Shown piece by piece: positions 1,000 through 17,469 of a stretch of DNA of 64,000 bases (position 1 is its first letter; each line of letters starts with the position of its first letter). Source of the DNA: Bdellovibrionota bacterium (GTDB taxonomy: Bacteria; Bdellovibrionota_C; UBA2361; OMII01); assembly GCA_044345405.1 (NCBI GenBank), contig JBIJBE010000016.1:11040-75039 (forward strand). Direction: 5' to 3'. A program made the translations under genes and the position numbers. The notes beneath the pieces were generated by a model, which was not told where the DNA came from, did no database searches, and saw nothing but the letters and a program-made list of their open reading frames with translations.

Positions 1000-1557
1000 C
1001 TACACCGCCTTCGTCGTCCGCGTATCGATCGGCTTCCCAAGAAGCGGCGGAAGATCTGGATGGTGTTGCATACCACCCTGCGAGTGAACGATCTGTTGCC
1101 TCGAACGTTGGATATCGGACTGTAGGTGCATGAGCGCGTCGAGAACGGTCTCTGGGCGTGGTGGACATCCTGGGATGTACATATCAACCGGGATGATCTT
1201 ATCGATGCCGGCTACCGTTGTGTAGTTATCGTAGAATCCACCGGATGACGCGCACGCGCCAAAAGCTACTACCCACTTCGGCTCAGCCATCTGCTCGTAC
1301 ACGCGCAGAAGAACCGGAGCGAGCTTGTGGTTAACGGTACCAACCACCCACAAAAGGTCTGACTGACGAGGGGTGAATCGTGGAAGCGCGGCGCCGAAAC
1401 GATCGGTGTCGTAGTGGGAGCAGTTCACTGACATGAACTCCATGCCGCAGCACGCGGTCACGAACGGGTAGGAGAAGAGGGAATACTTACGAGCCCAGCC
1501 GAGTGCGCTTTCAAGTGTCGTCGTAAAAAACCCGGACTGGTCAGCCGAATAAACCAT
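1000..1557 (-). CDS. nuoB: NADH-quinone oxidoreductase subunit B (stand-alone)
   Basis: WARKYSL..ACCGMEF, PRQSDL..GTV, MAEPKWV..GACA.SGG, PVDMYIPGCPPRPE. Start reset to ATG 1557, which has GGAG upstream. Confidence 0.93.
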   Translation of the reverse strand: MVYSADQSGFFTTTLESALGWARKYSLFSYPFVTACCGMEFMSVNCSHYDTDRFGAALPRFTPRQSDLLWVVGTVNHKLAPVLLRVYEQMAEPKWVVAFGACASSGGFYDNYTTVAGIDKIIPVDMYIPGCPPRPETVLDALMHLQSDIQRSRQQIVHSQGGMQHHPDLPPLLGKPIDTRTTKAV

Positions 1558-1880
1558 GTGAACTCCATCGGTACATCTTCGAGAGGCGGTCTCAAAACCG
1601 TCGCCCCCTATTACTATATAATATGTCGGTGTCCCGCAAATCGCTATTCGACCCGAACTGATGTGGGAATTGGAAAACATGTGTGCGTTCCAACGTGAAG
1701 GCGTGTATGTGCCGACAAAACCCAAGGGCTCTGGCGCAAGCCGCTGATATTGTTGGGTTTATGGCAATTTGCGGAAGCGGTGGTGTTTCGGATCTTCCTA
1801 AAGCTCGCGCCATCACGGGAATACCCCCGACTCCATCCTTCGTGCTACCCTCCAGCTCGCGTTCGTAAGTAAAGATCTTT

Positions 1881-2648
1881 ATGTCAGCGACCCCAGCGAT
1901 GACCCCCCAACAGAAGGAGTTAACCGACACCAAGAGCTCGGGGCTCGCGGCGTACCGTCGGCTCGCTGTGGGAAAGGGCTCGACCCTGCATTTCGTCGCC
2001 TATGAGGTGGTGCAGTTGCTCTTCGGAAACCTCCCAGGCCTTATAGGTTTCGCGACTCGTGCTCTCGCGTATCCCTTCCTCTTTAAGTCATGTGGTCGTC
2101 GACCGGCCCTTGGACGTGGGGTGCTTGTTCGGATTCCTCAGCAGATCTCCCTGGGTAACGGTGTCCTTATCGATGATGGAGCCTCACTTGATGTGCGAGG
2201 AGATGACGCCTCGATTACTATCAAGGATAGGGTCAGTATCGGTCGCCTCTCAACGATCGCCGCGAAGCACGGGCATATTACCCTTGGGGATGGATGTAAC
2301 ATCGGCTCGTATTGCCGCATCGCCACCCAATCACGAGTTGATATCGGAGAGAGCGTACTGATAGGAGCGTATTGCTACGTTGGGCCGGGAAATCACACCG
2401 GTGGTGGCGAGGAAACCCCGTTGATTGAGCAACCGATGGATATCAAAGGTGGCGTTTCGATCGGATCGCATGCGTGGCTCGGCGCGCGAGTAACCATTAT
2501 GGATGGTGTGAGGATCGGGGCGCACGCGGTAGTTGGCGCGCACTCGTTCGTGAAGGATGATGTGCCGGATTACGCGGTGGTTGTTGGAACTCCAGCGAGG
2601 ATCGTAGGCTCCCGTAAGGCCGAGGCCACGCACACTCAAAACGCGTAG
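1881..2648 (+). CDS. Hexapeptide-repeat (left-handed beta-helix) acyltransferase
   Basis: [LIV]-G-x-x-x-x repeats; C-terminal IGSHAWLGARVTIMDGVRIGAHAVVGAHSFVKDDVPDYAVVVGTPAR. Confidence 0.88.
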   Translation: MSATPAMTPQQKELTDTKSSGLAAYRRLAVGKGSTLHFVAYEVVQLLFGNLPGLIGFATRALAYPFLFKSCGRRPALGRGVLVRIPQQISLGNGVLIDDGASLDVRGDDASITIKDRVSIGRLSTIAAKHGHITLGDGCNIGSYCRIATQSRVDIGESVLIGAYCYVGPGNHTGGGEETPLIEQPMDIKGGVSIGSHAWLGARVTIMDGVRIGAHAVVGAHSFVKDDVPDYAVVVGTPARIVGSRKAEATHTQNA

Positions 2649-2657
2649 AGGATATTT

Positions 2658-3617
2658 TTGAGGCCATTTCTCGTACTAGTTTTCTGTGTTGGTATCGTCG
2701 CCCTGGTCGCGGGTGGATTCGTGCTCGTGCGTGACTTTAATCGTACCTTCCCGCAGCTAAAGCCAGGGGTGTACGGAGGAATGCTCGTTCCCGATGGCGA
2801 AGCCGCGGCGATTCCGTGGTGGGTTGAGTCCACGGTCGGGAGCGCTGACATCCTCGTCGCTCTTGGTGTTCCCGGCGTGCCAGCGCAACGCGGCGTTGTG
2901 GTTGAGTCTTCGAGCAAAACGCGACTTCCGCTCATCGTTACCGGTGCTGAGCGGCGATTTCGTATCGTGGGTCGAGAGGATGATAACGGCACCTATGAGG
3001 GCGATTACACGGACCCGATTACCTCGGAGCGTGGAACGTGGCGCCTAAAGCGATATGATATTCCTCCTTTAGAAAAATCCTCGCGCGACGACCTCGTTGA
3101 GTGGGTGACAACCTGGCAGGCGTTGCGATCCGTAGAGACCAAGATCGAGGAGGTCAAAAACTCGTACGATACGGATGAGGAGCGTATTGAAAAATTACAT
3201 CGATACGCTGTCGAGGGTGACTCTCTCCAGAAGGTCGCAAATTCCCGACTTACCTCGACCTCTTCCGCGCTTGATGAGCTAAAGAAGAATAACGCCGTTA
3301 AGAAGGGGGAGCTCGATGAACTGCTTCGGAATATCGATATCAGTAGGCGAGTTTCAAATGAGGGGCGGCTCGTTGATTTGAGTCGTGAAAGCATCACTCG
3401 AGAAGGGAGATGGATCGAGCAGGCGCTCAACATCGCCGCTCCAAATGTATCTGGCAACTTTGACGCCTCCTACGAGCGAGCGCTCAAGGTAAAAGCGCTG
3501 CAAGATCAGATCGCTGATGAGCGAGGGCTTATCCGTAATCTTACGGAGGGTCCTCGATATCGAGAACGTGACGGTGAGCGTGAGAGTGAGGAGGCTTTCT
3601 ATAATGAGCTTCAGTAA
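2658..3617 (+). CDS. Hypothetical membrane-anchored protein with C-terminal coiled coil
   Basis: 319-aa ORF, N-terminal hydrophobic helix, E/K/R-rich helical C-terminal half, 9 bp after the previous stop. Confidence 0.7.
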   Translation: MRPFLVLVFCVGIVALVAGGFVLVRDFNRTFPQLKPGVYGGMLVPDGEAAAIPWWVESTVGSADILVALGVPGVPAQRGVVVESSSKTRLPLIVTGAERRFRIVGREDDNGTYEGDYTDPITSERGTWRLKRYDIPPLEKSSRDDLVEWVTTWQALRSVETKIEEVKNSYDTDEERIEKLHRYAVEGDSLQKVANSRLTSTSSALDELKKNNAVKKGELDELLRNIDISRRVSNEGRLVDLSRESITREGRWIEQALNIAAPNVSGNFDASYERALKVKALQDQIADERGLIRNLTEGPRYRERDGERESEEAFYNELQ

Positions 3618-4428
3618 GACCTCACAGTGCGTAGGCGTCTTGTTCGCTCTCGGTGTTAGCGTCGCTCACGCCTCTCCTGAGCCCGTAACGTTGGTGCAGT
3701 CGGTCGAGATAGCGGCGCTTCCGGATAAGGCGAACGTAGTGGTTTCTCAAGGGGCAACCGTTATCGCCGTCGTCCCCGCCGCAATCGTGGTTCACGATGG
3801 CTCGCCGACGGTGACCGTTGTCGGTCGAGTAACACTGCCGATAGAGGGTGGGCCCTACAAAGCGCTCGTGACGGTATACGCGAAGACCGGTGAGATAGGC
3901 TCGGCTGTTCGCGAGATCAAGGATGTGCGGCTTGAGCCCGCGGTACTGCTCGACGTGTCCGAGCTGAAGCGACGACTTGGCGAGCAGAAGGCTGAGCTGC
4001 ACAAGTGGGATAAGCAGTCGAATGAGCAGAGATCCAGACTCAAAAAGGTGCAGCAGCAGGCTGATACCCTCTCAAAAGTTGGGAAGATCATCGATACTGA
4101 TGATGAGCTTCGCGCGGCGAAGGAGGAAAACGCGCGCCTCGTCGCCTCGATAGCCCTTGCTCAGGAGCGAGCGCTCGCGCTTAAGAGTAAAGAGACCCCA
4201 CCTAACTTCAAGAAACGGGAGGCCGAGATCTCTACCTACCTCAACACGCTCTCAACCGAGCTCAAGGCATCTGAGGAGGGGGGCGCCTTCGATAGCGCCT
4301 CAAAGGAGCTTCAAGAAAAGAAAGATCTCATTGAGGCGACAAAGTACGAACACCTCGATCTCCTCAAAGATGAGCTTGCGGAGATGCGCCGTAAGCGCGA
4401 GGCGTTGGAGCGCAAGGCGGCGGAGTAG
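3604..4428 (+). CDS. Hypothetical exported protein with long coiled coil
   Basis: Signal peptide MSFSK...VSVAHA; beta-rich N-terminal domain then heptad-rich K/E/Q region; overlaps the upstream gene by 14 nt. Confidence 0.7.
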   Translation: MSFSKTSQCVGVLFALGVSVAHASPEPVTLVQSVEIAALPDKANVVVSQGATVIAVVPAAIVVHDGSPTVTVVGRVTLPIEGGPYKALVTVYAKTGEIGSAVREIKDVRLEPAVLLDVSELKRRLGEQKAELHKWDKQSNEQRSRLKKVQQQADTLSKVGKIIDTDDELRAAKEENARLVASIALAQERALALKSKETPPNFKKREAEISTYLNTLSTELKASEEGGAFDSASKELQEKKDLIEATKYEHLDLLKDELAEMRRKREALERKAAE

Positions 4429-4509
4429 GTTGTCGCCCTCCCTAATGTCGGGTTAAACCCCCTCACAATCGTCCTTTTCCCTTCCTCCAATATCGACTAG
4501 TGTAACTGC

Positions 4510-4779
4510 GTGGAAATAGGGCAGAAACAAGATTTGCAACCGCTCGTGGATGCTATCGTCAAACGACGAATGGTTGAGCCATCTATCTTCCTCCTGGAGA
4601 TGTGCAAACCGCTCGTAGGGTGTTTGCGAGAGCTCTATGCGGTGAGTGAGCCTCTGCTGCACACGCTGCTCGGCAGCTCCCTTGCGCCGGCCTTGAAACG
4701 GGCGCTGCAATCATCCGATGACGCAGAGGTGCTGATCCGTGCACTTGAAGAGACCCGTGGGGGCTCACGGAGCGTATGA
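4510..4779 (+). CDS. Small hypothetical protein (PSIFLLEMCKPL motif), first gene of the GlmL-like operon
   Basis: GTG start; ATGA overlap with the next gene; helical amphipathic sequence. Confidence 0.62.
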   Translation: MEIGQKQDLQPLVDAIVKRRMVEPSIFLLEMCKPLVGCLRELYAVSEPLLHTLLGSSLAPALKRALQSSDDAEVLIRALEETRGGSRSV

Positions 4780-5588
4780 GTGGTCTTGAGCACATCACCC
4801 CTGGAATACTCGTTGTTCTCGTCATCGCGGGTATTATCCTGTATCGCGAATTAAAGCGCGCGCAGGGAGGCTACCACCACTTCATTCGCCGCATCCCGGG
4901 CGTTGATGCCGTTGAGGGCGCGGTTGGTCGATGCGCTGAGCTTGGAAGGCCCGTGGTGTTTACGACCGCGCTTACCGATGTGGGCCCCGTACTCTACGCC
5001 TGTCTTGGAGTGCTTCACGCTGTCGCGCGAAAAGTCGCGCAGTACAAATTAAAGTTGATTGTTCCGCAGTATTCCCCTGAGGCCATGGCTCTCGTTGAAG
5101 ATACTGTGCGCGAAGCGTACCGAGATGTTGGTCGAGGAAGCTCCTTTGATCCTGATGGAATTAAGTTCCTTTCGAGCGAACAGTTCGCCTTCGCGTCCGG
5201 ATATATGGGCTTGATGCATCGCGAAAAGGCGGGCGCCGCCTTCATGTTCGGCGCCTTCGCGGCTGAGGCGCTTGTGTTGGCGGAGGCCGGGCAACAGGTT
5301 GGCGCGCGACAGGTCGCGGCGAGCGTGAGTCCAGAGCAGGTCGCGTTCTTCATCTGTACCTGCGACTACACGTTGATCGGCGAAGAGCTCTTCGGAGCTT
5401 CCGCGTATTTGAGTCGTGAGCCGGTCCAGGTGGCGACCCTCGCGGCGCAGGATCGGTTGAAGCTGCTCTTCCTCGGTCTCATCATCCTGGGTGTTCTCTT
5501 GGCGACCCTTCAAGCATGGTATCCCAGCCTCGCCGCATGGATGCCGCATAGGCTGTTGTCCGCTGATTGGAGCTCGCTCGCATGGTAA
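4776..5588 (+). CDS. DUF6754-like membrane protein
   Basis: TM - soluble alpha/beta domain - TM. IRRIPGVDAVEGAVGR.AE.GRP and CDYTLIGEELFGASAYLSREP motifs, recalled as DUF6754. Confidence 0.75.
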   Translation: MSGLEHITPGILVVLVIAGIILYRELKRAQGGYHHFIRRIPGVDAVEGAVGRCAELGRPVVFTTALTDVGPVLYACLGVLHAVARKVAQYKLKLIVPQYSPEAMALVEDTVREAYRDVGRGSSFDPDGIKFLSSEQFAFASGYMGLMHREKAGAAFMFGAFAAEALVLAEAGQQVGARQVAASVSPEQVAFFICTCDYTLIGEELFGASAYLSREPVQVATLAAQDRLKLLFLGLIILGVLLATLQAWYPSLAAWMPHRLLSADWSSLAW

Positions 5589-6649
5589 CGATACAATCAA
5601 CCGACACGAGAATAAAGCTGATCCGGATCTTCACCTTCTTGGGAGGAGTCTACTTCTTTCTCTACTTCGTTCTTCCCGAGAGCGCCGTGACCGCCATCGG
5701 CATGAAGGCGCACCACGAGCAGATATCAAATGGATTTATCGTGATTGGGGCGATGGCGCTCGGGCTCGGATTGTACAATATCGTTCGAGCTCACGGCGCG
5801 CGGGTCGTCTTTCAACGGAGTGGGTGGTTTAACAGCCTCGCATTGCTCGTTGGACTGGTCGCGATGATCGGAGCGACATCGGCTCAGTGGATAGAAAATC
5901 TTCAGAATACAAAAGACATTCGCTCTGTTCAGGTTCTTGGAGAGTTCGCGACCCGTATCGTCGAAGACGCCAAGAGTCCTCCAACTGATCGAGTTGTACC
6001 CCCGTTTGCAGAACGAGTTTCCGCTCTTGTTCGGTATGGAGAGGAGCGCGTAACGCTGATCGAATCGCATACCAACCTCTCGGTAGAGGCTGGTACGAAT
6101 GGCGCCTCAAGCGTTCTCATCGGTGAGGTGCGAGACCGTATCGCGACCACTCGCGCGAAGCTTGGAGAGATTAAGAATGTTTCCTGGGAACAGCCGAGTG
6201 ACGAAAATTTGGGTCGACTGACACAGTTCTCTCAGGACGCCGCGAAGCTCGCCAGTTCTTACTCCATAGTTAAACGCTCTCACGACGCGCATAGCACCTC
6301 GCAGAAGGTATATGACTTCCTCTTCGATGGGCTCTTCAATCAGCTCGGTTCCGCGATGTTCGCCCTGCTCGGTGTGTATATCGCGGCCGCTGCGTATCGG
6401 GCATTCCGTGTTCGCACGATCGAGTCGGGGCTCATGATGACCGCGGCGGTAATTGTGATGCTTGGGCAGATCTCCTTTGGAAAGGAGATCTATGAGCATA
6501 TGCCCTCCATCCGGCAGTGGCTCCTTGAGGTTCCTAATAGCGCGGCGTTCCGAGCGATCCGACTGGGAGCCGGAGTCGCTGGGCTTATGCTCGCTATCAG
6601 AATGTGGCTCTCTATCGAATCGAAATCTTTCTCATCGGGGCGTAAGTGA
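5582..6649 (+). CDS. Conserved polytopic membrane protein (about 6 TM) with a soluble insertion
   Basis: Hydrophobic helices; MFALLG.YIAAAAYRAFRVRT.ES and AAFRAI.LG motifs; overlaps both neighbours. Confidence 0.78.
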   Translation: MVTIQSTDTRIKLIRIFTFLGGVYFFLYFVLPESAVTAIGMKAHHEQISNGFIVIGAMALGLGLYNIVRAHGARVVFQRSGWFNSLALLVGLVAMIGATSAQWIENLQNTKDIRSVQVLGEFATRIVEDAKSPPTDRVVPPFAERVSALVRYGEERVTLIESHTNLSVEAGTNGASSVLIGEVRDRIATTRAKLGEIKNVSWEQPSDENLGRLTQFSQDAAKLASSYSIVKRSHDAHSTSQKVYDFLFDGLFNQLGSAMFALLGVYIAAAAYRAFRVRTIESGLMMTAAVIVMLGQISFGKEIYEHMPSIRQWLLEVPNSAAFRAIRLGAGVAGLMLAIRMWLSIESKSFSSGRK

Positions 6650-7509
6650 TGGGTGGACGTCGGTTGATATACCTTCTCATGATCTTGGCGGTTGGATTGC
6701 CAATCGTATTCGGCATCTCGCAGAAGCCGTCGCGCTTGGTGTCCGCCGAGCGGATGTATGATGTCGTCGAACAGGTGCGAGTACAACCGGGCGAGGTCGC
6801 CATGGTGTGGTTCGATTTCGGTCCTAATACGATAGCCGAGAACGAGCCGCAGGCGCAGGTGTTGATCGAGCACCTCTTCCGTCGTCGGATTCCGGTAGTG
6901 CTCCTCTCGCAGTATCAACAAGCTGAGCGTTTCCTCACCAAGATTCCGAACGAGGTAGCTCAACGGCTTGAGGCTGAGATGCCGGGTCAGCAGTGGCGGT
7001 ACGGCGAGGCGTGGGTGAACGCGGGGTTTCGCCCCGGTGGCGCTATCTTTATCCAATCGATGGTCAACGCGGCCGATGTCTCAAAGTTCCTCGGACGCGA
7101 TGTCAACGGAATGCCTATCAGCCACTATCCAGCGTTCTCCGCGATCGGGGGCGTTGAACGGGTGAAGCTCGTTGGTGAGATAACAGGACTTGTTGGCGTT
7201 TTCGACAATATCATCCAGTTCTTCCAAAAGAATGAGTATCGACCCACAATCGTGCACGGCTGCACCTCGATTACGATTCCAGAGGCGTACATCTTCCTCG
7301 ATTCAGGTCAGTTGAAGGGACTTCTTGAGGGGATAGCGGGGGCAGCGTGGTACTCTGAGGTTCTGAAGGAGCACTTCCCTCATAGTGAAAATAAGGAGCT
7401 CTTGGTGACGAACACGGCGCTTAGCGCCGCTCACATCGTGCTTATCCTACTCATCGTTCTTGGAAACATCGTACCGTTGTTTGAACGTCGGAGGGCGAAT
7501 CATGGATAG
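6649..7509 (+). CDS. Conserved membrane-anchored protein (TM - alpha/beta domain - TM)
   Basis: RRLIYLL.. anchor, SGQLKGLL.G..GAAWY, C-terminal AHIVLILLIVLGNI; TGATG overlap with the upstream stop. Confidence 0.78.
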   Translation: MGGRRLIYLLMILAVGLPIVFGISQKPSRLVSAERMYDVVEQVRVQPGEVAMVWFDFGPNTIAENEPQAQVLIEHLFRRRIPVVLLSQYQQAERFLTKIPNEVAQRLEAEMPGQQWRYGEAWVNAGFRPGGAIFIQSMVNAADVSKFLGRDVNGMPISHYPAFSAIGGVERVKLVGEITGLVGVFDNIIQFFQKNEYRPTIVHGCTSITIPEAYIFLDSGQLKGLLEGIAGAAWYSEVLKEHFPHSENKELLVTNTALSAAHIVLILLIVLGNIVPLFERRRANHG

Positions 7510-8218
7510 CTCCTCAACATGGGCCCTCGCTTCCGTTATCGTTGGTGGACTCGCGACCCTCGCCATCTTTAGCTTCCTTATTAAAGAGAACGGATTCTAT
7601 CGTTTCTTCGAGCACCTCTTCATCGGTATCGCCGCGGGGCTTGGACCGATGCTTATTATCCGCGACTTCTTGTGGCCGAATATCCTGGAGCCGATGTTGG
7701 GTCTTACCATCGTGACCTATCCAGACGGGACCCACTCGGAGTCGTATCAGCCACTCTACCTCCTCTACATCATCCCGATGATATTTGGGTGTCTCTACTA
7801 TTTTATCTATTCGCAGCGGTACTCGTGGCTCGCCAAGCTTGTTATCGGATTTACACTTGGCGCGAGTGGAGCCCTGGCGATTCGAGGCTTCTTCTCTGAG
7901 GCGGTCCCGCAGATAGCGGGAAGCTTTAAACCTCTTGTCGTCTTCGTTGAGGGTAACGTATCCCTCCTGGAGAGCTTTAATAATATCCTCTTCGTCGCCA
8001 CGTTGCTGTTGGTGCTCAACTATTTCTTCTTCACCTTCGGAAAGGAGGGCTCGCTGCAGGGCAAGATAGCGCCGGTCGGGCGGCCGCTTCTTATGGTGTG
8101 CTTTGGAGCGTTCTTTGGCTCAACGGTCATGGCGCGACTCGCCCTTCTCGTCGAGAGAGTGCAGTTTATCGTTCACGATTGGTTCGACGCGGTTGGTACC
8201 CTAGTGGGGATAGGATAG
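7502..8218 (+). CDS. Conserved polytopic membrane protein (about 6 TM)
   Basis: TLAIFSFL.KEN.FYRFFEHLFIG and GR.LLMVCFGAFFGSTVMARLALLVER; GGAGG RBS; overlaps the upstream gene. Confidence 0.78.
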   Translation: MDSSSTWALASVIVGGLATLAIFSFLIKENGFYRFFEHLFIGIAAGLGPMLIIRDFLWPNILEPMLGLTIVTYPDGTHSESYQPLYLLYIIPMIFGCLYYFIYSQRYSWLAKLVIGFTLGASGALAIRGFFSEAVPQIAGSFKPLVVFVEGNVSLLESFNNILFVATLLLVLNYFFFTFGKEGSLQGKIAPVGRPLLMVCFGAFFGSTVMARLALLVERVQFIVHDWFDAVGTLVGIG

Positions 8219-8219
8219 C

Positions 8220-10046
8220 GTGATGAAAACGAATCCCGCGGAGCTCAAGACTGTGCTTGTTACCGATTGTGGCTCAACCACAACAAAAGCGCTTCTCTTT
8301 GAGCGTCGTGAGGATAGGTGGCACCAGACCTTTCGAGGTGAGGCGCCCACGACGGTCGAGGAGCCTACGGCGGACGTGACCATCGGTGCCGTGAACGCAT
8401 TTACGGAGGTTCAGGAGTTAAGTGGTCGAGCGATCGTTACGGAGGGCGAGTCTCCCTTCGTCGTAACGGAAGGTGATCCATCTCAAGGCATCGATCTCTA
8501 TCTCTCGACGAGCTCCGCGGGTGGTGGTTTGCAGATGCTCGTCGCCGGGGTTGTTCGAAATATCACAACTGAGTCCGCTGAGCGCGCGGCGCTTGGCGCT
8601 GGCGCAATCGTGATGGAGTCCGTCTCAGCGGATGATGGACGGGAGGATTACGAGCGGATTGAAAAGATTCGGCATATTAAGCCTGATATCGTTTTAGTGA
8701 CCGGGGGTGTCGATGGCGGCGCGACAAGTCACGTTGTGGAGATGGCGGAGATCCTGGTGGCTGCGTCCCCGCGTCCTCGATTCGGTGATACGTTAAAGCT
8801 GCCGGTTATCTACGCCGGTAACGCCGAGGCGGCCGACGAAGTTGCTCAGATCCTCTCGAAAAAAGCGCAGGTTGTGGTCGTGCCGAATGTCAGACCAACG
8901 CTCGAACAGGAAAACCTCGGTCCGGCGCGCGAAGCGATTCATGAATTTTTCCTCTCGCACGTCATGAGCCACTCACCTGGATATGGGAAGCTCATGTCGT
9001 GGAGTCCGATTGCCATTATGCCCACCCCCGCGGCCGTGGGAGATATCGTGCAGATGTACGCGAAGCAGACGGGACAAAATGTCCTGTGTGTAGATATCGG
9101 AGGAGCTACAACCGATGTTTTCTCAGTGTTTGTAGATCGAGCGGGAGCGCACGCGTTTAACCGCACAGTGAGCGCGAATCTTGGCATGAGTTACTCGGTG
9201 GCGAACGTGCTTGTTGAGGCCGGCGTTTCGAATATAGCCAGGTGGCTTCCCTTTGACCTTAGCGAGACTGAGCTGCGTGACCGTTTGCGTAATAAGATGA
9301 TCCGTCCAACTTCGATCCCGCAGACAGTTCACGACCTCTGGCTTGAGCAGGCGGTATGCAGAGAGGCGCTTCGTCTATCACTCGATCATCACCGCTCCCT
9401 CGCGATCGGTCTTGAAGGGAAGCGAGAGAAGGGGATAGCCGACGTGTTTAAGCAATCCTCAGAGCGTTATGAGCTCGTTGACCTCATGCGCCTCGATGTG
9501 GCGATCGGATCTGGTGGAGTGCTGAGTCATGCTCCCTCACGGATGCAAGCGGCACTCATGCTGGTCGAGGGCTTTGGCTTGCAGGGAATAACGCAGCTCG
9601 CGGTGGATTCTATATTTATGATGCCACACCTGGGGGTTCTGGCGTCCGTGCATCCGCAAGCCGCGCGGGAGGTTTTTGAGAACGATTGCCTGATCTACTT
9701 AGGGCCATCAGTCGTTCCAGTGTATCCCGCTAAACGTCAGGTGCAGGGAGAGTTGGCGACCGTATTCCTTAATAACCAAACCCTTGGCTCCGTCATCGCT
9801 GGCGCCGTAACGCGATTAGCAACCCCAAGCTCGGGTAAGGGAACCCTTCGGGTCGTTCCATCGCACGGGTTTGTGGATGTTGGAGGTGGTCCCGGTAAGC
9901 CGTTCGAACGAGAGGTAACCTTGGGTGAATGTGGTGTCGTGTGTGATGGGCGAAATCGACCTTTCACTTTGCCAGAGCCGCGCGCTGCAGCACAACGAAG
10001 TGTATTTTCCAACCTAGGACTTCTCGGGGAGGCGGCAGATGTCTAA
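8220..10046 (+). CDS. GlmL ('glutamate mutase L')-like ASKHA/actin-fold ATPase
   Basis: Phosphate-1 DCGSTTTK, SSAGGGL, GGVDGG, VIYAGN, PTPAAV, phosphate-2 DIGGATTDVFS, RTVSANLGM. Confidence 0.85.
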   Translation: MMKTNPAELKTVLVTDCGSTTTKALLFERREDRWHQTFRGEAPTTVEEPTADVTIGAVNAFTEVQELSGRAIVTEGESPFVVTEGDPSQGIDLYLSTSSAGGGLQMLVAGVVRNITTESAERAALGAGAIVMESVSADDGREDYERIEKIRHIKPDIVLVTGGVDGGATSHVVEMAEILVAASPRPRFGDTLKLPVIYAGNAEAADEVAQILSKKAQVVVVPNVRPTLEQENLGPAREAIHEFFLSHVMSHSPGYGKLMSWSPIAIMPTPAAVGDIVQMYAKQTGQNVLCVDIGGATTDVFSVFVDRAGAHAFNRTVSANLGMSYSVANVLVEAGVSNIARWLPFDLSETELRDRLRNKMIRPTSIPQTVHDLWLEQAVCREALRLSLDHHRSLAIGLEGKREKGIADVFKQSSERYELVDLMRLDVAIGSGGVLSHAPSRMQAALMLVEGFGLQGITQLAVDSIFMMPHLGVLASVHPQAAREVFENDCLIYLGPSVVPVYPAKRQVQGELATVFLNNQTLGSVIAGAVTRLATPSSGKGTLRVVPSHGFVDVGGGPGKPFEREVTLGECGVVCDGRNRPFTLPEPRAAAQRSVFSNLGLLGEAADV

Positions 10047-11148
10047 GGCGCTCACACCCGCACTAGCTGTTACCTCTCGGGCTACGATTCGTCGCCGCCG
10101 CGATCTTCCGATCGCGGGTGAGGTGCTCGTAAGGGAAGGGGACGTAGTCGCCGGTTCTCAGGTGGTAGCTCGCGCGCAGCTTGATGGTGAGTTGCGGCTG
10201 GTACGGGTCGCGGAGTTACTCGGTATCCCCGCTTCCGATCTTCCAACGGCCTTACGAGTCGTGGAGGGTGACAAGGTCGAAGAGGGCACCCTGATTGCGG
10301 AGCTCCGCGGGCTTTGGGGGCTCTTTCGAAGCACGGTGATGTCACCGATTACTGGAACGGTTGAGTTTATCTCAAGCGCCACAGGACACGTGGGGGTGCG
10401 CGCGCCATCCACGCCCCTTAATCTCTCAGCGTATATTGATGGTCGTGTGGTCGGTGTTGAGCCGCAACGGTCGGTTATCATCGAGGCTGAGAGTACCTTC
10501 GTGCAGGGAATCTTTGGCGTGGGTGGGGAGCGACGGGGAAAACTTCGCGTGCTACCAGTCTCGCCCGATACCGTTTTGACCGAGGAGCATATCCCCGATC
10601 GCGCGGAGGGTGAGGTGCTCGTTGGTGGACATTCGCCAACCAGTGGCGCGCTCGCTAAGGCGGTGAAGGGTGGCGCTGTCGGATGTATCACCGGTTCTAT
10701 CGATGATCGAACGCTCCGTGAGTACGTGGGTTACGATATCGGAGTGGCGTTAACGGGGGACGAGGATGTTTCTATGACCCTCATTTTGACTGAAGGCTTT
10801 GGCTCCCTCTCTCTCAGCGATCGGGTACTCGCTACGCTGCGCGCCATTGATGGTCAGATCGTCTCGATAAATGGGGCCACGCAGGTTCGAGCGGGGGCGC
10901 AACGTCCTGAGATTATCGGCCCGATGGGGCCCGTGCGGCATGACCACGACGGCGGTGAGCGATCGCTCTCGGTGGGGGCTCGTATTCGGGTGATTCGGGT
11001 TCCCTATTTCGGAGTGTTGGGAACTGTAACAGACCTTCCCCATGAACTTTCTCAGATCGAAACGGGAGCGTCTGTGAGGGTGCTCGTCGCCACGCTCGAC
11101 GACGGTCGACAGGTTGCCGTGCCCCGGGCTAACGTGGAGCTGCTATAG
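10039..11148 (+). CDS. Conserved hypothetical protein with barrel-sandwich-hybrid-like repeats and a C-terminal KOW/SH3-like domain
   Basis: GEVLVREGDVV, VVEGDKVEEG, SPITGTV, AYIDGRV repeats; VQGIFGVGGE; LTEGFG; GARIRVIRVPYFG..G.V; VPRANVELL. 8-nt overlap with the ATPase gene. Confidence 0.78.
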   Translation: MSKALTPALAVTSRATIRRRRDLPIAGEVLVREGDVVAGSQVVARAQLDGELRLVRVAELLGIPASDLPTALRVVEGDKVEEGTLIAELRGLWGLFRSTVMSPITGTVEFISSATGHVGVRAPSTPLNLSAYIDGRVVGVEPQRSVIIEAESTFVQGIFGVGGERRGKLRVLPVSPDTVLTEEHIPDRAEGEVLVGGHSPTSGALAKAVKGGAVGCITGSIDDRTLREYVGYDIGVALTGDEDVSMTLILTEGFGSLSLSDRVLATLRAIDGQIVSINGATQVRAGAQRPEIIGPMGPVRHDHDGGERSLSVGARIRVIRVPYFGVLGTVTDLPHELSQIETGASVRVLVATLDDGRQVAVPRANVELL

Positions 11149-11167
11149 CCCGTGAAGGAGCCCTCGC

Positions 11168-12091
11168 ATGTTTGAGAAGATAGCAAAGACCCGCGCGAAG
11201 TTCTGGTTCTTGGGGCTCTCCACTCTTGTGGTCGTTGTGGGGATAGTTGGATATCTGGTGGAGGGGCGTCGGACACTCCCGCTTCCTCCGGTCATGCGGA
11301 TCGTCACCGATCCGGCCTCAAAGGCTCAGCACCTTCAGGTGCCACTTCTTCACTACACCAAGGGCTCGCGATTGAAAGATCAGATAGTCCTTGATTTTGT
11401 CGGCGCCGTACATCTCGGTGAGAAATCGTACTACGGAGATCTCAATAAACGCTTTGCCTCATATGACGCCGTGTTGTTTGAGTTGGTGAGTGATGGGAAT
11501 AACCTACCAGCCATCGGGGAAGAACGACCGGATTCTCTGCTTGGAACCGTGCAGCGAGCCTTTAGCAATCTCCTTGGTCTCTCATTTCAGCTTGATGAGG
11601 TGAACTATCGCGCTAAGAATTTCATACACGCCGACCTTTCCCCCGAGGAATTAAGTGACGCGATGGCGGCGAGAGGGGAGAGCTTGCCTCAACTTCTTAT
11701 GAAGCTCGTTAAGCTCTCAACTGACCCAGAAATTAAAAAATCTCTGGAGGCCAATGGCTACAAGGAGAGTAGTCTGGAGGGGATTAATCCGCTGCTTATT
11801 CTGTTGCGAGGGCCAACGCAGGAGGACCGCTTAAAGATTCGCCGATTCATGGCGCAAGGGCTGGTTGGCTCCGACGCCATGATGAAGGTGCTTGAGGGTG
11901 ATAATGGGTTTTCACTCATCACCGATAGGAATAGTGAGGTCATGGCAGTTCTCAACAGAGAGACCGCACTCGGAAAGCGCAAGATCGCCATATTCTACGG
12001 CGTTGGTCACCTCCCCGATCTACATAAAAGATTCCTAGAGCAGGGCTATCGACTGGCGAAGGTTGAGTGGTTGACCGCTTGGAACATGTGA
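11168..12091 (+). CDS. TraB/GumN (Tiki)-superfamily membrane-anchored protein
   Basis: N-terminal TM; VGAVHLG, VLFEL, DRN, AIFYGVGHLPDL putative metal-ligand motifs. Confidence 0.6.
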   Translation: MFEKIAKTRAKFWFLGLSTLVVVVGIVGYLVEGRRTLPLPPVMRIVTDPASKAQHLQVPLLHYTKGSRLKDQIVLDFVGAVHLGEKSYYGDLNKRFASYDAVLFELVSDGNNLPAIGEERPDSLLGTVQRAFSNLLGLSFQLDEVNYRAKNFIHADLSPEELSDAMAARGESLPQLLMKLVKLSTDPEIKKSLEANGYKESSLEGINPLLILLRGPTQEDRLKIRRFMAQGLVGSDAMMKVLEGDNGFSLITDRNSEVMAVLNRETALGKRKIAIFYGVGHLPDLHKRFLEQGYRLAKVEWLTAWNM

Positions 12092-12101
12092 GGAAGCGCG
12101 T

Positions 12102-12620
12102 ATGAAGGTGATGGAGTATATTCGTCCGGGAGCGATAGTAACGAGGGGATACGCTGAGCGGTTGCTGAAAGGGATAATGCCTGAGAACTTCGCTCGCTTT
12201 CCCCTTACAAACGGCGCTCAGGTAACGATTAATCATCCCGCCTTTGTTTTTGGGCATCTCGCGTTGTACCCGAGTTTGATCGCGGAGATGACCGGGATCT
12301 CGAGTAAGGGAATGGAGATACCGGCGACCTACTCCGATCTCTTCAAGATGGGAGTTCCGTGCCAGGACGATCCGAACGGCACGATCTATCCGTGTATGGA
12401 GGAGATAGTGCGCACGTTTTTTTCGGGCACCGACGCGCTCATCGCGGCACTTGATACGATCTCGCCTGAGAGCCTTGACGTAGTACTTGAAAACCCCTCA
12501 CGTCGGGAACGATTCGGAACGGTCGGGGCTTTTTTGGCGTATATTCTTCTCGCGCACCCACAGTCGCACCTAGGGCAAGTGAGTGGTTGGCGTCGGTGCA
12601 TGGGACTTGGTCCCGCTTAA
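12102..12620 (+). CDS. DinB/YfiT-family protein
   Basis: NHPAFVFGHLA near the N-terminus and HPQSHLGQVSGWRR at the C-terminus (His triad). Confidence 0.8.
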   Translation: MKVMEYIRPGAIVTRGYAERLLKGIMPENFARFPLTNGAQVTINHPAFVFGHLALYPSLIAEMTGISSKGMEIPATYSDLFKMGVPCQDDPNGTIYPCMEEIVRTFFSGTDALIAALDTISPESLDVVLENPSRRERFGTVGAFLAYILLAHPQSHLGQVSGWRRCMGLGPA

Positions 12621-12627
12621 ACCGTGC

Positions 12628-13194
12628 CTATTGCTGCGACATCTTCTGGATCTCCTCATCCTCAAGGAGTACCTTCTTGATGTCCGCCAAGGTGACAAGG
12701 GTTGGTCGCGGACTCACCGGCGAACGTGATTTAGAGAGATCTTTTGTCGCGGTAGCCGCGACCTCTAAGTTGGATACCACCTTCTTCAGCATGCCGTGAA
12801 CCGTTCTCTGCCAGTTCATGAGCTCTTCGATGTGTTGGATCTCCTGGTCTACTTGGTCCAGAGGTGAGTTTTCGTTTATCGGGCTGTTCACACGCTCAAG
12901 GATGCAGAGAGCTTGAGAGTACTCCCGAGTCGCGAGATGATGGCGAACATCGTCATCAACCAGTTCAAGGCGATTGAGGGTCTCTTTGAGTTTTACCCAT
13001 TCGTTGTCTGAGAAGACCGCGCAGTACTCGTCCGAGTGCTTCTCGAGTGTGAGGATGTGACTTCTAAAATCGCCCACCTTCTCTTGAAACCACCGTGATT
13101 GAGCGTAGGCGCGAGCTCGAACGGGATCTCTCACAAAAAAGTACCAGCCGCAAACACCGAGAGCCCCTGCCGCTATCAGAACGAGTGCAAACAT
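12628..13194 (-). CDS. Hypothetical membrane-anchored helical protein
   Basis: 188-aa ORF with N-terminal TM, convergent with the DinB-family gene. Confidence 0.65.
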   Translation of the reverse strand: MFALVLIAAGALGVCGWYFFVRDPVRARAYAQSRWFQEKVGDFRSHILTLEKHSDEYCAVFSDNEWVKLKETLNRLELVDDDVRHHLATREYSQALCILERVNSPINENSPLDQVDQEIQHIEELMNWQRTVHGMLKKVVSNLEVAATATKDLSKSRSPVSPRPTLVTLADIKKVLLEDEEIQKMSQQ

Positions 13195-13435
13195 GAGAAG
13201 AACACCAAAACTATAGACGTCCGTATGAAAGGAGAAGACGGCGAAAAACTGAAAGTTCTAAACGGTTAGGGGCTTTTTAGTGTGCATACCGCAACTCTCT
13301 CCCGCCTCGTCTCCACCGCTACGATGGCCAGCGTGGAGCAAATAATTGAAATGCCTTCGGTTTCGCCTTGTAGTGGCGCCTTACCTGCACCGCCGACGAG
13401 GTCTACGGGTATTTCGTAAAAACCTGGGCAAAGGC

Positions 13436-14417: not shown

Positions 14418-14613
14418 GTGAGCGTGCTCGTAAACGTAAACGTGAACGTACACGAAGAAGGGCCGCTAGGTGTGCGGATGGTTTGAGCGCACGGCCCCAC
14501 CCGTTTTCATCGGAGGCTTCCTGGTCCGCGTAGCAATTATCGGATTTCTTATCCCTTTTCTGGGGTCATAGCGATTTGGGTACGTTCACGTTTACGTCTA
14601 CGAGCACGTTCAC
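14418..14613. repeat. 34-bp inverted repeat pair built from ACGTRA-like hexamers, enclosing 128 bp
   Basis: 14418-14451 GTGAGCGTGCTCGTAAACGTAAACGTGAACGTAC versus the reverse complement of 14580-14613: 32/34 identical. Confidence 0.9.
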
Positions 14614-14760
14614 CTCCCAAACGTTCCTCGACACTCTACGGTGCAGGTGTACGTTTGGCCGCGAACCGGCACTAAGCATACCCTCTTCCGACGAACAATC
14701 GGGGTGTTACCCCTCAATTTGCCCCGACTGAGGGATCGGGGTATACCCTTTTGAATTCCT

Positions 14761-15288
14761 ATGAATCAGCACTCTCACACGGCAATTATCGCTTTTGGCG
14801 GCAATCTTGGGGATCCTATCGCGACGTTGCGGCGGGCTCTACCTATGATCGAAGAGGTTGTGGGGCCGATCGTCAAGCTCTCCTCGCTCTACGAAACCAA
14901 GGCGTTGACCTTGCGAGGAGAGGAGCACCCCAACTATGTGAACGCGGTGCTTGAGGTGTCCACCACCTCGGAGCCGGAGGGGATCTTGAGAGAGCTCCTT
15001 CGCATTGAACACGAGCTCGGAAGAGATCGCTCCCCTGACAAACGGTGGGAGCCGAGAACTATCGACCTCGATCTTCTCTTTGTCGGATCGACCGTTCTGA
15101 GCACTCCCTCCCTTAAGGTACCTCATCCAGAGATGGCGAAGCGGGACTTTGTGATAGAGCCGCTAGCCGAGATAGTTGGAGATTTTGTACATCCTATCCT
15201 TGGTGAGAGCATGACCGATCTAAAAGCTGCTCTTCTCGCCAGTGGTGCCGAGCGATTTGTCATTCGCACCTTTCCTTTTGAGCAATGA
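14761..15288 (+). CDS. folK: 2-amino-4-hydroxy-6-hydroxymethyldihydropteridine diphosphokinase
   Basis: IAFGGNLGD, SSLYET, YVNAV, IEHELGR, WEPRTIDLDLL, VPHP, RDFVIEPLAEI. Confidence 0.95.
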   Translation: MNQHSHTAIIAFGGNLGDPIATLRRALPMIEEVVGPIVKLSSLYETKALTLRGEEHPNYVNAVLEVSTTSEPEGILRELLRIEHELGRDRSPDKRWEPRTIDLDLLFVGSTVLSTPSLKVPHPEMAKRDFVIEPLAEIVGDFVHPILGESMTDLKAALLASGAERFVIRTFPFEQ

Positions 15289-15449
15289 TTTTTGAGTCGC
15301 TTGCAAGTTTGTAGCGAGCAGGACTTTGTGTCGCCCCGACGTGAGCGTACCCGAACGAGGTTGCTCCGTTATTCGCCACTCAATCTAGAGAACGTACCCA
15401 GCGTAATCAGAGTGAGGAAAGGGATGTTCGTGTAGGTTGACGTTCATGA

Positions 15450-16268
15450 TCACAGGATGCGCCACTCGGGCATGCTGACATCAGCGGCCGAGAGCGCCTC
15501 CCGTTGTCGCGCCACGTTGTGAACTCGAAGATAGGTAGGGACGTCGTGGGCCACCTGTCGGACGGCCGCAGCTCCAATGCGCGCCGAAATATCATCCTTA
15601 GCCTCAAGATCCATCTCTCCAAGTAGTTTAAGAAATCCCTTTCGAGAGCAACCGAGAAGAATTCCTCCCTGGGTTGAGGCAAGTTCTCCCAAGCTTTCAG
15701 CGATGAGCCATGAGACCTTCGGATCGGAGCTGATAAAGGCGCCCATTCCAGGATCGACGATCAGGCGGTGGTTCTCGATACCGGCGTTGACGCACACCGT
15801 AATCGTCTCCCTGATCCAGGATGAGATTCCAGAGAGCGCCGATTCGAAGGGAAATCCATCTCCAAATTGGTGAGCGCCCCCGTGTGGATTGCACATGAAT
15901 ATATACGACGCGCGACTCAGAGCGACGACACGTAGCATTTCGGGAGATCGTTGGCCCGACACGTCGTTAATAAAAGTGGCGCCGGAGTCGATGGCTCGTC
16001 GCGCTATCTCTGGGTGATGGGTGTCGACGGATATCGGAAGGCGGTGCGCGAGGTGAGAGAGGAGCGGGTTGATACGTCGCCATTCCTCCTCAACTCCCGG
16101 GCAGGTAGAACCTGGTCGCGTCGAGTCTCCTCCGATATCCAGCACATCGACGCCTTCGTCGATCAAACGGCGCGCAGTCTCGGTAAGGCGTTCGTACGAT
16201 ACATCGCCAGTGCTATCAGAGAAGCTATCGGGCGTGCAGTTAAGGATACCTACGATTTTGGTCGCCAT
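15450..16268 (-). CDS. folP: Dihydropteroate synthase
   Basis: GILNCTPDSFSD, DIGGDSTRPG, SVDT, INDVSG, DPGMG, SRKGF, RVHNV. Confidence 0.93.
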   Translation of the reverse strand: MATKIVGILNCTPDSFSDSTGDVSYERLTETARRLIDEGVDVLDIGGDSTRPGSTCPGVEEEWRRINPLLSHLAHRLPISVDTHHPEIARRAIDSGATFINDVSGQRSPEMLRVVALSRASYIFMCNPHGGAHQFGDGFPFESALSGISSWIRETITVCVNAGIENHRLIVDPGMGAFISSDPKVSWLIAESLGELASTQGGILLGCSRKGFLKLLGEMDLEAKDDISARIGAAAVRQVAHDVPTYLRVHNVARQREALSAADVSMPEWRIL

Positions 16269-16383
16269 ACATAGTGGTGTGTAGCACCTTTTCGAGGGGG
16301 CGGCTACGATCAGGGAAAGACCCCGTAATGTGCTATGAGAGAGCGACTAGCGCCCTCATTCTCCGTGGAATACTCTTCTAGGC

Positions 16384-17055
16384 ATGAGCGCTGAGTATCA
16401 TCTGACACCCGAAGAGCAACAGATAGCGGACCGCTTCCATGACCTGTACTACACCAAGCGTGTGGGACCAGGGCATCATCGTATCTGGGAGCAAACGAAG
16501 TGGATGGGGTATCCGGTACTCAAGACACCGGCTGACCTGTGGGTCTATCAGGAGATCCTCTTCGAGACGAAACCGGACCTGGTCATCGAGACAGGAACCT
16601 ACGCAAGTGGTACCACCCTCTTTATCGCGCAGATGATGGATCTGATAGGAAAGGGAAAGATCGTATCGATCGACATCCAGGAGCTCTCTATTCGAGCTCG
16701 TCATCCCCGAATAACGTACCTTTCCGGTTCAAGCGCTGATCCAGCGATCGCCACATCCGCCGCCGCTCATGCGGCGCCGGGCGAGTCGTGTCTCGTGATC
16801 CTTGATTCCGATCACACGCAGGCTCATGTAGCGGCGGAGCTCTCACTCTTTGCTCCCCTTGTAACGGTCGGAAGTTATCTCATCGTTGAGGATTCGAACG
16901 TAAACGGACATCCGGTCTATCCGTCTTTTGGCCCTGGCCCGTATGAGGCGATCTCGGATTTCCTGCGGCGGCATCCGTCATTCGCGCCTGATAAATCTCG
17001 CGAGAAATTCCTCGTGAGTTGGAATCCGAACGGATACCTCCGTAGGGATGCCTAA
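16384..17055 (+). CDS. CmcI/cephalosporin hydroxylase-family (rhamnosyl O-) methyltransferase
   Basis: WMG..VLK.P.DL..YQEI, KPDLVIETGT..GT, VILDSDH...HV..EL, GSYLIVED, PGP..A. Confidence 0.88.
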   Translation: MSAEYHLTPEEQQIADRFHDLYYTKRVGPGHHRIWEQTKWMGYPVLKTPADLWVYQEILFETKPDLVIETGTYASGTTLFIAQMMDLIGKGKIVSIDIQELSIRARHPRITYLSGSSADPAIATSAAAHAAPGESCLVILDSDHTQAHVAAELSLFAPLVTVGSYLIVEDSNVNGHPVYPSFGPGPYEAISDFLRRHPSFAPDKSREKFLVSWNPNGYLRRDA

Positions 17056-17469
17056 AGGCGACTCCCTGAGGAGCTATCGAAGTTCCGTTATGGGGAGAGG
17101 TGGGCGCGGGAACGTTCGCGAAGCTAGAATTTCCCACGCCTTAAATTCTGGCCCATACATCACTGAAATCTTCCTCTTGGCGAGGAGGAGAGCGTTATGA
17201 ACCAGGCCGGAGCGCTTCCGACCATACCCGGACCCAGGTATAGGCATTGGAGTTCTCAGGGGTCTAGATCACGGGTGAGATATTGCTAAGAGCCTAGAAT
17301 CGCGGGTCTTAGCTGACCTTATTGAAGTGCTGCTTTGGAAAATCAGATTTTGGGAGGCAAAGCGGGGAGACAGATATCCACCAAGAAGTCGGCCATGGCC
17401 TAAAATTCTACGTTAATGCTCGGATATGGGGTAAGCTTCGGCTAACGAGGGTCTCGGGAGTGAGAGCGC

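Follow-up and report, generated by a model that had tools for sequence, protein, structure and literature searches.

A seven-gene set linking a long-form MutL-family ATPase with four membrane proteins recurs across bacterial phyla and may encode an ATP-driven membrane system

What is an ATPase of the MutL family, whose members carry names such as 'glutamate mutase L', doing in a tightly packed run of genes for membrane proteins? The question is raised by seven genes, here called g1 to g7, at positions 4510-11148 of a 64,000-nucleotide stretch of the genome of a Bdellovibrionota bacterium (assembly GCA_044345405.1, contig JBIJBE010000016.1, positions 11,040 to 75,039; this whole stretch is referred to as the window). 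A first-pass annotation, made from the letters of the window, had proposed that the genes encode an undescribed membrane machine, in which the ATPase was recruited to power or regulate a membrane complex, with g7 as a cytoplasmic adaptor. This interpretation is partly supported by the analysis reported here: the conserved unit, the independence from glutamate mutase, the folds of g7 and, within the open-access literature, the absence of a publication all hold. The seven genes are as follows (coordinates, strand, product; genome and locus numbers beginning with G and L in the text below are our own).

4510-4779, + strand: g1, 89 amino acids from GTG 4510, start codon uncertain; small soluble helical protein
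4776-5588, + strand: g2, 270 amino acids; DUF6754 protein, with a Rossmann-like domain (about residues 40-215) between two transmembrane helices
5567/5582-6649, + strand: g3, 360 amino acids from TTG or 355 from ATG 5582; polytopic, about six transmembrane segments
6646-7509, + strand: g4, 287 amino acids; transmembrane helix, conserved soluble domain, second transmembrane helix
7460/7502-8218, + strand: g5, 252 amino acids from TTG or 238 from ATG 7502; polytopic, about six transmembrane segments
8220-10046, + strand: g6, 608 amino acids from GTG or 607 from ATG 8223; long-form ASKHA ATPase of the MutL/GlmL family
10039-11148, + strand: g7, 369 amino acids; soluble, with three predicted domains (barrel-sandwich hybrid, swivelling, KOW/SH3-like)

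The open reading frames and a reading of their junctions agree that all seven genes are co-oriented and overlap or abut, as had been claimed. The g1/g2 junction is an ATGA with a 4-nucleotide overlap; g2 and g3 overlap by 7 nucleotides if g3 starts at ATG 5582; g3 and g4 meet in GTGATG, where the overlap is 4 nucleotides from the GTG and 1 nucleotide from the ATG; g4 and g5 overlap by 8 nucleotides with the g5 start at ATG 7502; g5 and g6 are separated by a single nucleotide; and g6 and g7 overlap by 8 nucleotides. These junctions suggest translational coupling. When g6 is started at ATG 8223, the resulting length of 607 amino acids is typical of most of its homologues. The G+C content is even over the cluster region (0.53-0.60). 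A promoter and terminator scan of positions 1500-13300 returned fewer sites than shuffled sequence, so that operon boundaries are not obtainable by this route. In a hydropathy scan, hydrophobic segments were found at both ends of g2 and g4, in g3 and at several places in g5, with none in g1, g6 or g7, confirming the count of four membrane proteins. The earlier description of the genes proved right wherever it could be checked.

Whether such a run of genes is a unit or an accident of position can be read from other genomes. An alignment of DUF6754 was used to scan genomes, one per species, yielding 79 loci in which the genes were placed by tblastn with the window proteins. All of g2-g7 lie in the window's order and on one strand in 54 of these loci, while 17 end at a contig end no more than 70 bases from the last match. 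The other eight, all in Planctomycetota-titled genomes, hold g2-g5 or part of it with no g6 or g7 behind. Five Planctomycetota-titled genomes were searched for g6 and g7 elsewhere, namely those of four of these eight loci and that of L081, which is one of the 17; a long MutL gene and g7 were present elsewhere in 5/5 of these genomes with a g2-g5 locus lacking g6 and g7, and the two formed an adjacent pair in 4/5. An independent scan of metagenome contigs with an alignment of g7, again using tblastn, yielded 80 loci, many on short contigs: five in the window's order, three in the order g6-g7-g2-g3-g4-g5, 23 with g6-g7 only, three otherwise partial, and 46 with g7 alone.

The recurrence of the same genes together in other genomes places the arrangement far beyond chance, and the seven genes form one conserved unit in unrelated bacterial phyla. 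The window's order (type 1) was also found in L073, L189 and L190, and a second order, g1-g6-g7-g2-g3-g4-g5 (type 2), in L153, L165, L166 and L182-L186. In G154 the set is split, with g2-g5 at one site and g1-g6-g7 about 270 kb away. Two of the type 2 loci, L165 and L183, carry two tandem g2-g3-g4-g5 modules behind a single g1-g6-g7, which suggests that one soluble module may serve several membrane modules. The system is modular: the membrane proteins g2-g5 form one module and the soluble pair g6-g7 another, the two are separable, and g1 goes with either. Clustering of the neighbours around type 2 and split loci revealed no further conserved partner, except for a membrane protein of about 160 amino acids, belonging to no family, which lies upstream of g1 in 5/19 of them. 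A neighbourhood of DUF6754 with 'glutamate mutase L', which the first-pass annotation had mentioned for unrelated bacteria and archaea, does recur in unrelated bacteria, in the window's order at 54/79 loci and in the second order in other phyla; the organism names among the matches of the set are all bacterial. A lack of synteny in other genomes had been named as grounds for abandoning the proposal, and synteny was found to be kept.

The seven families are linked over at least three phyla by presence and absence in genomes as well as by gene order. An even sample of 41 genomes was taken from the phylum of the Planctomycetota-titled G001, with G001 included (the Planctomycetota sample). DUF6754 is present in 10/41, and g7 (E<1e-119) in exactly those 10, the other 31 genomes giving a single 20-bit match; long MutL (E<1e-120) is present in those 10 too, with a single 102-bit match among the other 31, which lies in G167 beside GlmE. 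In a second sample, consisting of 41 genomes from the phylum of the Victivallales-titled G169 (G169 included), DUF6754 and g7 occur in the same 3/41 genomes. The genomes within each sample are related, and these counts are not independent trials, though presence and absence agree without exception. DUF6754 is found in 117/124 genomes of the window's own GTDB phylum, and in 72/73 of the high-quality ones. The proposed co-occurrence analysis, with GlmE scored alongside, thus has DUF6754, g7 and long MutL coinciding exactly and GlmE in none of the 10 carriers.

Is g6 nevertheless the protein that its family name implies? It matches Pfam MutL (PF13941) over model positions 1-450 with an E value of 5.5e-123 (411.5 bits), above the gathering score, and its nearest NCBIfam models are of the GlmL type. 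If this annotation were taken at face value, g6 would be GlmL, or the Or-4 protein of the ornithine pathway, and its neighbours would be unrelated to it. Its scores fall far short of the cut-offs of the corresponding models: 224.1 bits vs 475 for the GlmL equivalog NF040745, 217.3 vs 600 for the Or-4 model, and 173 vs 204.05 for TIGR01319. The cluster contains no mutase gene and no B12-binding Pfam domain, and the window genome, which is 99.4% complete and has a single MutL gene, gave no match to Met_asp_mut_E, in accordance with the earlier observation that the window contains no mutase or B12-binding gene; five matches to B12-binding domains in this genome are all on other contigs. GlmE also occurs in 0/10 carriers of the Planctomycetota sample and in 0/5 further carriers, which with the window genome makes none of the 16 carriers tested, so the ATPase clade does not always co-occur with a B12 mutase, an outcome that had been named as fatal to the proposal. 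In the 41 genomes of that sample GlmE occurs in G135 and G167 only, and that of G167 (G167:C22) adjoins a short, weak MutL match. G003 holds both kinds of gene: in addition to its long-form MutL, it has a short one (a 484-amino-acid open reading frame) directly upstream of GlmE (L168, G003:C66), and this GlmE-adjacent GlmL shares 29% identity with g6 across 416 residues. Genuine short GlmL genes beside GlmE thus occur in the same phylum as long-form carriers. By comparison, identities to g6 lie at 52-82% among its orthologues in other lineages, with two more divergent ones at 34-35%.

To judge by these scores and identities, g6 is a member of MutL that lies outside the GlmL equivalog, in a separate long-form clade of the family. 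In the carrier genomes tested, it is unconnected with glutamate mutase. GlmL/MutL proteins (PF13941, NF040745, TIGR01319) share with g6 the Pfam family and the ASKHA fold motifs and are alignable with it over about 416 residues; g6 differs in being about 120-150 amino acids longer, in never standing beside a mutase here, and in its linkage to g7 and four membrane proteins. This linkage includes the perfect co-occurrence of g6 with g7 and DUF6754 in the Planctomycetota sample. The classical reading of g6 is for practical purposes refuted and retains next to no probability. Searches with Rfam at gathering thresholds in the window and in L166, L184, L186 and L189 found no cobalamin or other riboswitch, the only matches being the ribosomal RNA genes of the window.

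The actin-fold motifs noted in g6 at the outset were found intact. The motifs DCGSTTTK (residues 16-23) and DIGGATTD (residues 292-299) are both present, and 16 orthologues show no variation in the phosphate-1, phosphate-2 and adenosine motifs. The protein ends in a C-terminal extension of about 120 amino acids. Comparison with PDB sequences, using both the single sequence and a profile, returned no solved relative.

A separate observation concerns two genomes in which a third MutL-like gene of divergent sequence (about 365 bits) adjoins a weak g7-like match (G151:C4:99386-102327 and G140:C95:24408-27346). The g7-like matches (E 1e-47 and 2e-45) are interrupted by an in-frame stop codon, TGA in one and TAG in the other, which leaves two readings: a copy in decay, or a pair of paralogues that have diverged.

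The partner protein g7 was modelled with a mean predicted local distance difference test (pLDDT) score of 87.0, and the model divides into three domains. With VIA-align, residues 51-123 resemble NqrA (4u9o, Z 8.2, 64 residues aligned) and RnfC (8ahx_C, Z 7.8); residues 152-296 resemble the N-domain of enzyme I of the phosphotransferase system (2wqd, Z 9.8, 106 residues aligned, 19% identity), with further matches of this swivelling domain to rifampin phosphotransferase (5hv1, Z 8.9), RraA (Z 8.7) and the C-domain of pyruvate kinase (2e28, Z 8.4); and residues 307-369 resemble the NusG C-terminal domain (1m1g, Z 8.4) as well as Spt5 KOW domains. These Z values are little above the level of unrelated models, and therefore name folds, not families. 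The top Foldseek match is domain II of Thermotoga maritima NusG (2xhc, E 1.2e-5). Pfam matches are sub-threshold only, to RnfC_N (23.9 bits vs a cut-off of 25.6) and biotin-lipoyl, and the ESM Atlas offered unnamed clusters only. The barrel-sandwich and KOW-like domains ascribed to the 369-amino-acid protein by the first-pass annotation are therefore present by predicted fold, and the central swivelling domain is an addition to that description.

None of these likenesses extends to a whole known system. RnfC and NqrA resemble g7 in its N-terminal domain only, and the cluster is without any NADH-, flavin- or Fe-S-binding domain or Rnf/Nqr membrane subunit family in Pfam. The mobile domains of phosphoenolpyruvate (PEP)-utilising proteins (enzyme I, rifampin phosphotransferase and the pyruvate kinase C-terminal domain) share the swivelling fold of the central domain of g7, but their phospho-accepting histidine has no counterpart, as there is no invariant histidine in 16 aligned g7 sequences; nor does g7 match the Pfam PEP-utilizers family.

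Most of the membrane proteins fall outside described families too. Only g2 among them has a Pfam assignment, DUF6754 (PF20539, E 2.8e-79, 266.3 bits vs a cut-off of 27), and it is the genome's sole copy; with g2 in DUF6754 and g6 in MutL, the remaining five of the seven are without a described family. The model of g2 (pLDDT 89.7) consists of a helix, a seven-stranded Rossmann-like alpha/beta domain at about residues 40-215, and a second helix. Foldseek gave no match for it at E<=0.001, and VIA-align returned a flat list of generic Rossmann-like folds at Z of about 10, from which no family can be named; profiles of g2 and g3 likewise found nothing meaningful among PDB sequences. In an alignment of 28 sequences, g2 has 38 invariant columns. 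Positive charges lie after its first transmembrane helix and before its second, so that the DUF6754 domain should face the cytoplasm. Type 2 g2 proteins, which carry an N-terminal signal or transmembrane segment and an extra domain ahead of the first helix, were taken as confirming this orientation, which is our own reading from the charges and these longer forms, not that of a predictor.

In the window lineage, g3 has a variable helical insert between its third and fourth transmembrane segments, while the type 2 orthologue, of 220 amino acids with six hydrophobic segments, is without it. No Pfam family was found in any of 19 members of g3, even at E<=5, nor in 18 members of g4 at that threshold, and in 20 members of g5 all Pfam matches at E<=5 are sub-threshold. 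The alignments of g4 and g5 contain 31 and 37 invariant columns, respectively. In g4 both termini are positively charged, which would turn its conserved domain outward; this domain is probably extracytoplasmic, as read by us from the flanking charges and not by a predictor. The ESM Atlas gave no usable match for g4. Profile-profile comparison detected no homology between g2 and g4 or between g3 and g5. Two candidate relationships were set aside. A profile match of g4 to PDB 8h2i_cU, 'P22' (E 3.3e-9), was rejected as an artefact because its score sums nine matches of 0.4-3.9 bits to a repeated 43-residue unit, and the scattered sub-threshold Pfam matches of g3-g5 (LptF_LptG in 1/19 members, DUF2975 in 3/20) are too weak to be taken as relationships. 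The small protein g1 matches no Pfam or NCBIfam family; its homologues stand first in the cluster whether the locus is of type 1, of type 2 or split, and a hydrophobic-helix motif conserved over all of these forms marks it as a true seventh member instead of a filler reading frame.

The combination of an actin-fold ATPase, a swivelling domain and a Rossmann-like domain invites an explanation in terms of a chaperone. GlmL has been proposed to act on the Rossmann-like, B12-binding subunit GlmS, and a similar logic is known for the diol dehydratase reactivase DdrAB, in which DdrA, composed of an actin-fold ATPase domain and a swivelling domain, acts on a Rossmann-like subunit. By analogy, the membrane module could be a membrane-bound enzyme, with catalytic domains in g2 on the cytoplasmic side and in g4 on the outer side, and g6 and g7 could be an ATP-dependent maintenance factor that would open the DUF6754 domain for exchange of a cofactor or ligand. 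This would suit the membership of g6 in the MutL/GlmL family, the swivelling beta/beta/alpha domain of g7, the Rossmann-like DUF6754 domain, the capacity of one soluble module to serve two membrane modules, and the enzyme-like richness of g2 and g4 in invariant Asp, Glu, His, Arg, Ser, Thr and Cys. It is countered by the lack of any recognised cofactor-binding motif in g2 or B12-binding Pfam domain in the cluster, by the lack of a cobalamin or other riboswitch in the window and four related loci, by the failure of g7 to match the Pfam family of reactivase swivelling domains at E<=0.01, and by the lack of a recognised enzyme family for g2 or g4. The likeness to DdrAB and EutA would lie in the three ingredients, which are here spread over three proteins (g6, g7 and g2), one of these anchored in the membrane; neither a B12 enzyme nor a B12-binding domain or riboswitch is linked to them, and the DdrA, DdrB and EutA families gave no Pfam match in the cluster and no PDB sequence match for g6. 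On balance, this explanation is considered unlikely, though it is the chief rival to the one favoured below.

Further constraints come from the outward-facing parts of the system, which vary among lineages. Among 3435 candidates, 705 longer DUF6754 proteins were found at E<=0.001, and domains were read on 120 listed matches. Within these 120, PF13360 lies ahead of DUF6754 in 43 proteins, some of which are named PQQ-like beta-propeller or BamB-like in their source records, and PF00041, which we take to be fibronectin type III, in nine. The organism names of the long DUF6754 proteins include Eremiobacterota, Armatimonadetes, Vulcanimicrobiota, Cloacimonadota, Edwardsbacteria and Brocadiia. The window lineage elaborates its outer part differently, with the coiled-coil insert of g3 and perhaps also with two envelope proteins of coiled-coil type encoded upstream (g0a and g0b, listed below). 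Thus, the outer parts differ by lineage (coiled coil, fibronectin-type or beta-propeller), and the cytoplasmic and membrane parts are constant.

Receptors typically combine a constant cytoplasmic domain with outer domains that vary, and g2 could accordingly be the receptor of a transmembrane sensor, with g6 and g7 as its cytoplasmic signalling or adaptation partners. Some neighbours would fit such a role: a CHASE kinase and a receiver protein are encoded upstream of L074, and downstream of g7 a response regulator is found in 22/80 and a kinase in 15/80 of the metagenome loci. These two-component neighbours are, however, lineage-specific and absent from the window and from most loci; two conserved subunits with six transmembrane segments and a near-universal presence in a phylum would be unusual for a sensor; and no output domain was recognised. 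A sensor is regarded as very unlikely.

Adhesion-type outer domains in other phyla are also relevant to a membrane-anchored actin-like cytoskeleton, in which polymers of g6 would be tethered by g7 and g1 to the membrane module while the outer domains grip the wall or surface, serving cell shape, division or motility in the manner of MreB-RodZ-MreCD or PilM-PilN. The actin fold of g6, its intact nucleotide motifs and its pairing with bitopic and polytopic membrane proteins, joined in the window lineage by coiled-coil envelope proteins, would all be in keeping with this. No Pfam or NCBIfam match links g6 to the polymer-forming actin families (MreB, FtsA, ParM, MamK), and strongly conserved intramembrane polar residues in g3 and g5 are left unexplained by a simple anchor. 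In the tree set of a review, glutamate mutase is placed among the non-polymerising enzymes of the actin superfamily (PMC5597319). Taken together, these points make a cytoskeletal role improbable.

The explanation that we favour, tentatively and with somewhat less than even confidence, is that g1-g7 encode one two-module system of the cytoplasmic membrane, which would be an ATP-driven machine. The membrane module would be built from the DUF6754 protein, two polytopic subunits of about six transmembrane segments each, and a bitopic protein with a conserved outward-facing domain; the soluble module g6-g7 would convert the energy and the membrane module g2-g5 would do the work. In the proposed cycle, binding and hydrolysis of ATP would close and open the actin-fold ATPase g6, and the mobile swivelling domain of g7 would relay this movement to DUF6754 on the cytoplasmic side and to the transmembrane bundle. 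The conformational cycle would then do work at the membrane or across it, by transporting a substrate or else by driving the domains that face outward, as in mechanotransmitting ATP-binding cassette (ABC) systems, with an actin/Hsp70-fold ATPase as the motor in place of a P-loop ATPase.

The mechanotransmitting ABC systems (MacB, LolCDE, FtsEX) likewise combine a cytoplasmic ATPase, few membrane subunits and variable outward-facing domains. They differ in the fold of the motor: the cluster is without an ABC or other P-loop ATPase, and g2-g5 are without Pfam matches of the FtsX or MacB type. More generally, neither a P-loop nucleotide-binding subunit nor a recognised permease family was found with Pfam and NCBIfam in the seven proteins or their neighbours. 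As far as can be judged at present, the system matches no known type of machine. No publication on it was found, nor any naming DUF6754, TIGR01319 or PF13941, in the open-access literature, which leaves most subscription journals outside; this accords with the earlier description of the machine as undescribed.

A bolder form of this proposal, which we consider possible but doubtful, is that the set represents a new class of primary membrane machine, with an ASKHA motor that is not of the P-loop, P-type or rotary kind. In such a class, a shared g6 and g7, together with g1, would drive one or more four-subunit modules whose lineage-specific outer domains (beta-propeller, fibronectin-type or coiled coil) act on the envelope, and the machine would be widespread in poorly studied phyla and near-universal in at least one.

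Several points weigh against an ATP-driven machine. The chief result against strict linkage is the solitary g7 of 46/80 metagenome loci; some of these genes have 5-10 kb of sequence on both sides and lie among housekeeping genes such as those for TatC, a response regulator and histidine kinase, LpxB, AccA, Era and RF2. Neither g3 nor g5 matches a transporter family in Pfam. The soluble domains of g2 and g4 are rich in invariant polar residues, a feature as compatible with enzymes as with a conformational relay. We know of no membrane machine with an actin/Hsp70-fold motor, so that the prior for this explanation is low, and even for true GlmL we are aware of no established biochemical activity.

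The surroundings of the cluster in the window, and of its relatives elsewhere, contain the following features.

1881-2648, + strand: hexapeptide acyltransferase (Pfam Hexapep) with a hydrophobic N-terminal part
2658-3617, + strand: g0a, coiled-coil envelope protein with an N-terminal anchor or signal peptide, no Pfam family
3517/3604-4428, + strand: g0b, coiled-coil envelope protein with an N-terminal anchor or signal peptide, no Pfam family
within 11168-12620, + strand: g8 (307 amino acids, N-terminal transmembrane segment, no family) and g9 (172 amino acids, DinB_2)
57424-58938, 59542-62478 and 62662-62772, + strand: 16S, 23S and 5S genes of a complete ribosomal RNA operon (Rfam)

Possibly a lineage-specific accessory, the acyltransferase gene lies upstream in 26/79 of the genome loci, including the very divergent L085 and L086, but is not found there in other phyla. 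The g0a and g0b genes are kept upstream in many loci of the window lineage (23-82% identity), again not in other phyla, and it is uncertain whether these two and the acyltransferase are members of the system. Homologues of g8 lie downstream of the cluster in close relatives only, and g8 and g9 are probably co-transcribed with the cluster while standing outside the conserved set. Judged by eye, the window begins inside a hybrid of histidine kinase and receiver (1-816, + strand), and the open reading frame at 1000-1725 on the - strand resembles the NuoB subunit of complex I.

In L085, an 804-amino-acid double ATP-grasp protein (of the D-Ala-D-Ala ligase plus L-amino-acid ligase type; 4034-6448, + strand) is encoded upstream of the divergent cluster, and no such protein was seen near the cluster of the window. 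The type 2 cluster of L166, on a 2.68-Mb contig, is flanked (6150-7637 and 14562-17254) by genes for a glycine dehydrogenase subunit, a polytopic TPR membrane protein and a lipoate-protein ligase, and these flanking genes are not conserved in the other loci examined. Solitary homologues of g7 also have recurrent surroundings of their own. In L092, L098, L101, L102, L108 and other metagenome loci, a solitary homologue about 50% identical to g7 lies in a block consisting of a 460-amino-acid protein without a family, TatC, g7, an OmpR-type response regulator and a PAS histidine kinase, and in a second lineage the order is an LpxB-like protein, g7, a 293-amino-acid protein, AccA and Era.

This study defines a signature of seven families, six of which are without any function, three of these lacking a Pfam entry as well, and it shows that names of the 'glutamate mutase L' type, such as Pfam MutL and TIGR01319, mislead for many long-form proteins of the g6 clade. 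The presence of DUF6754 in nearly all genomes of one phylum, together with the occurrence of one cluster in 54/79 loci that are mostly of that lineage, suggests a core cellular function. For cultivable carriers, directly testable partners are predicted. To our knowledge, all known ATP-driven membrane machines use one of a few motor folds; if the explanation favoured here is true, the actin/Hsp70-fold ATPase would join them.

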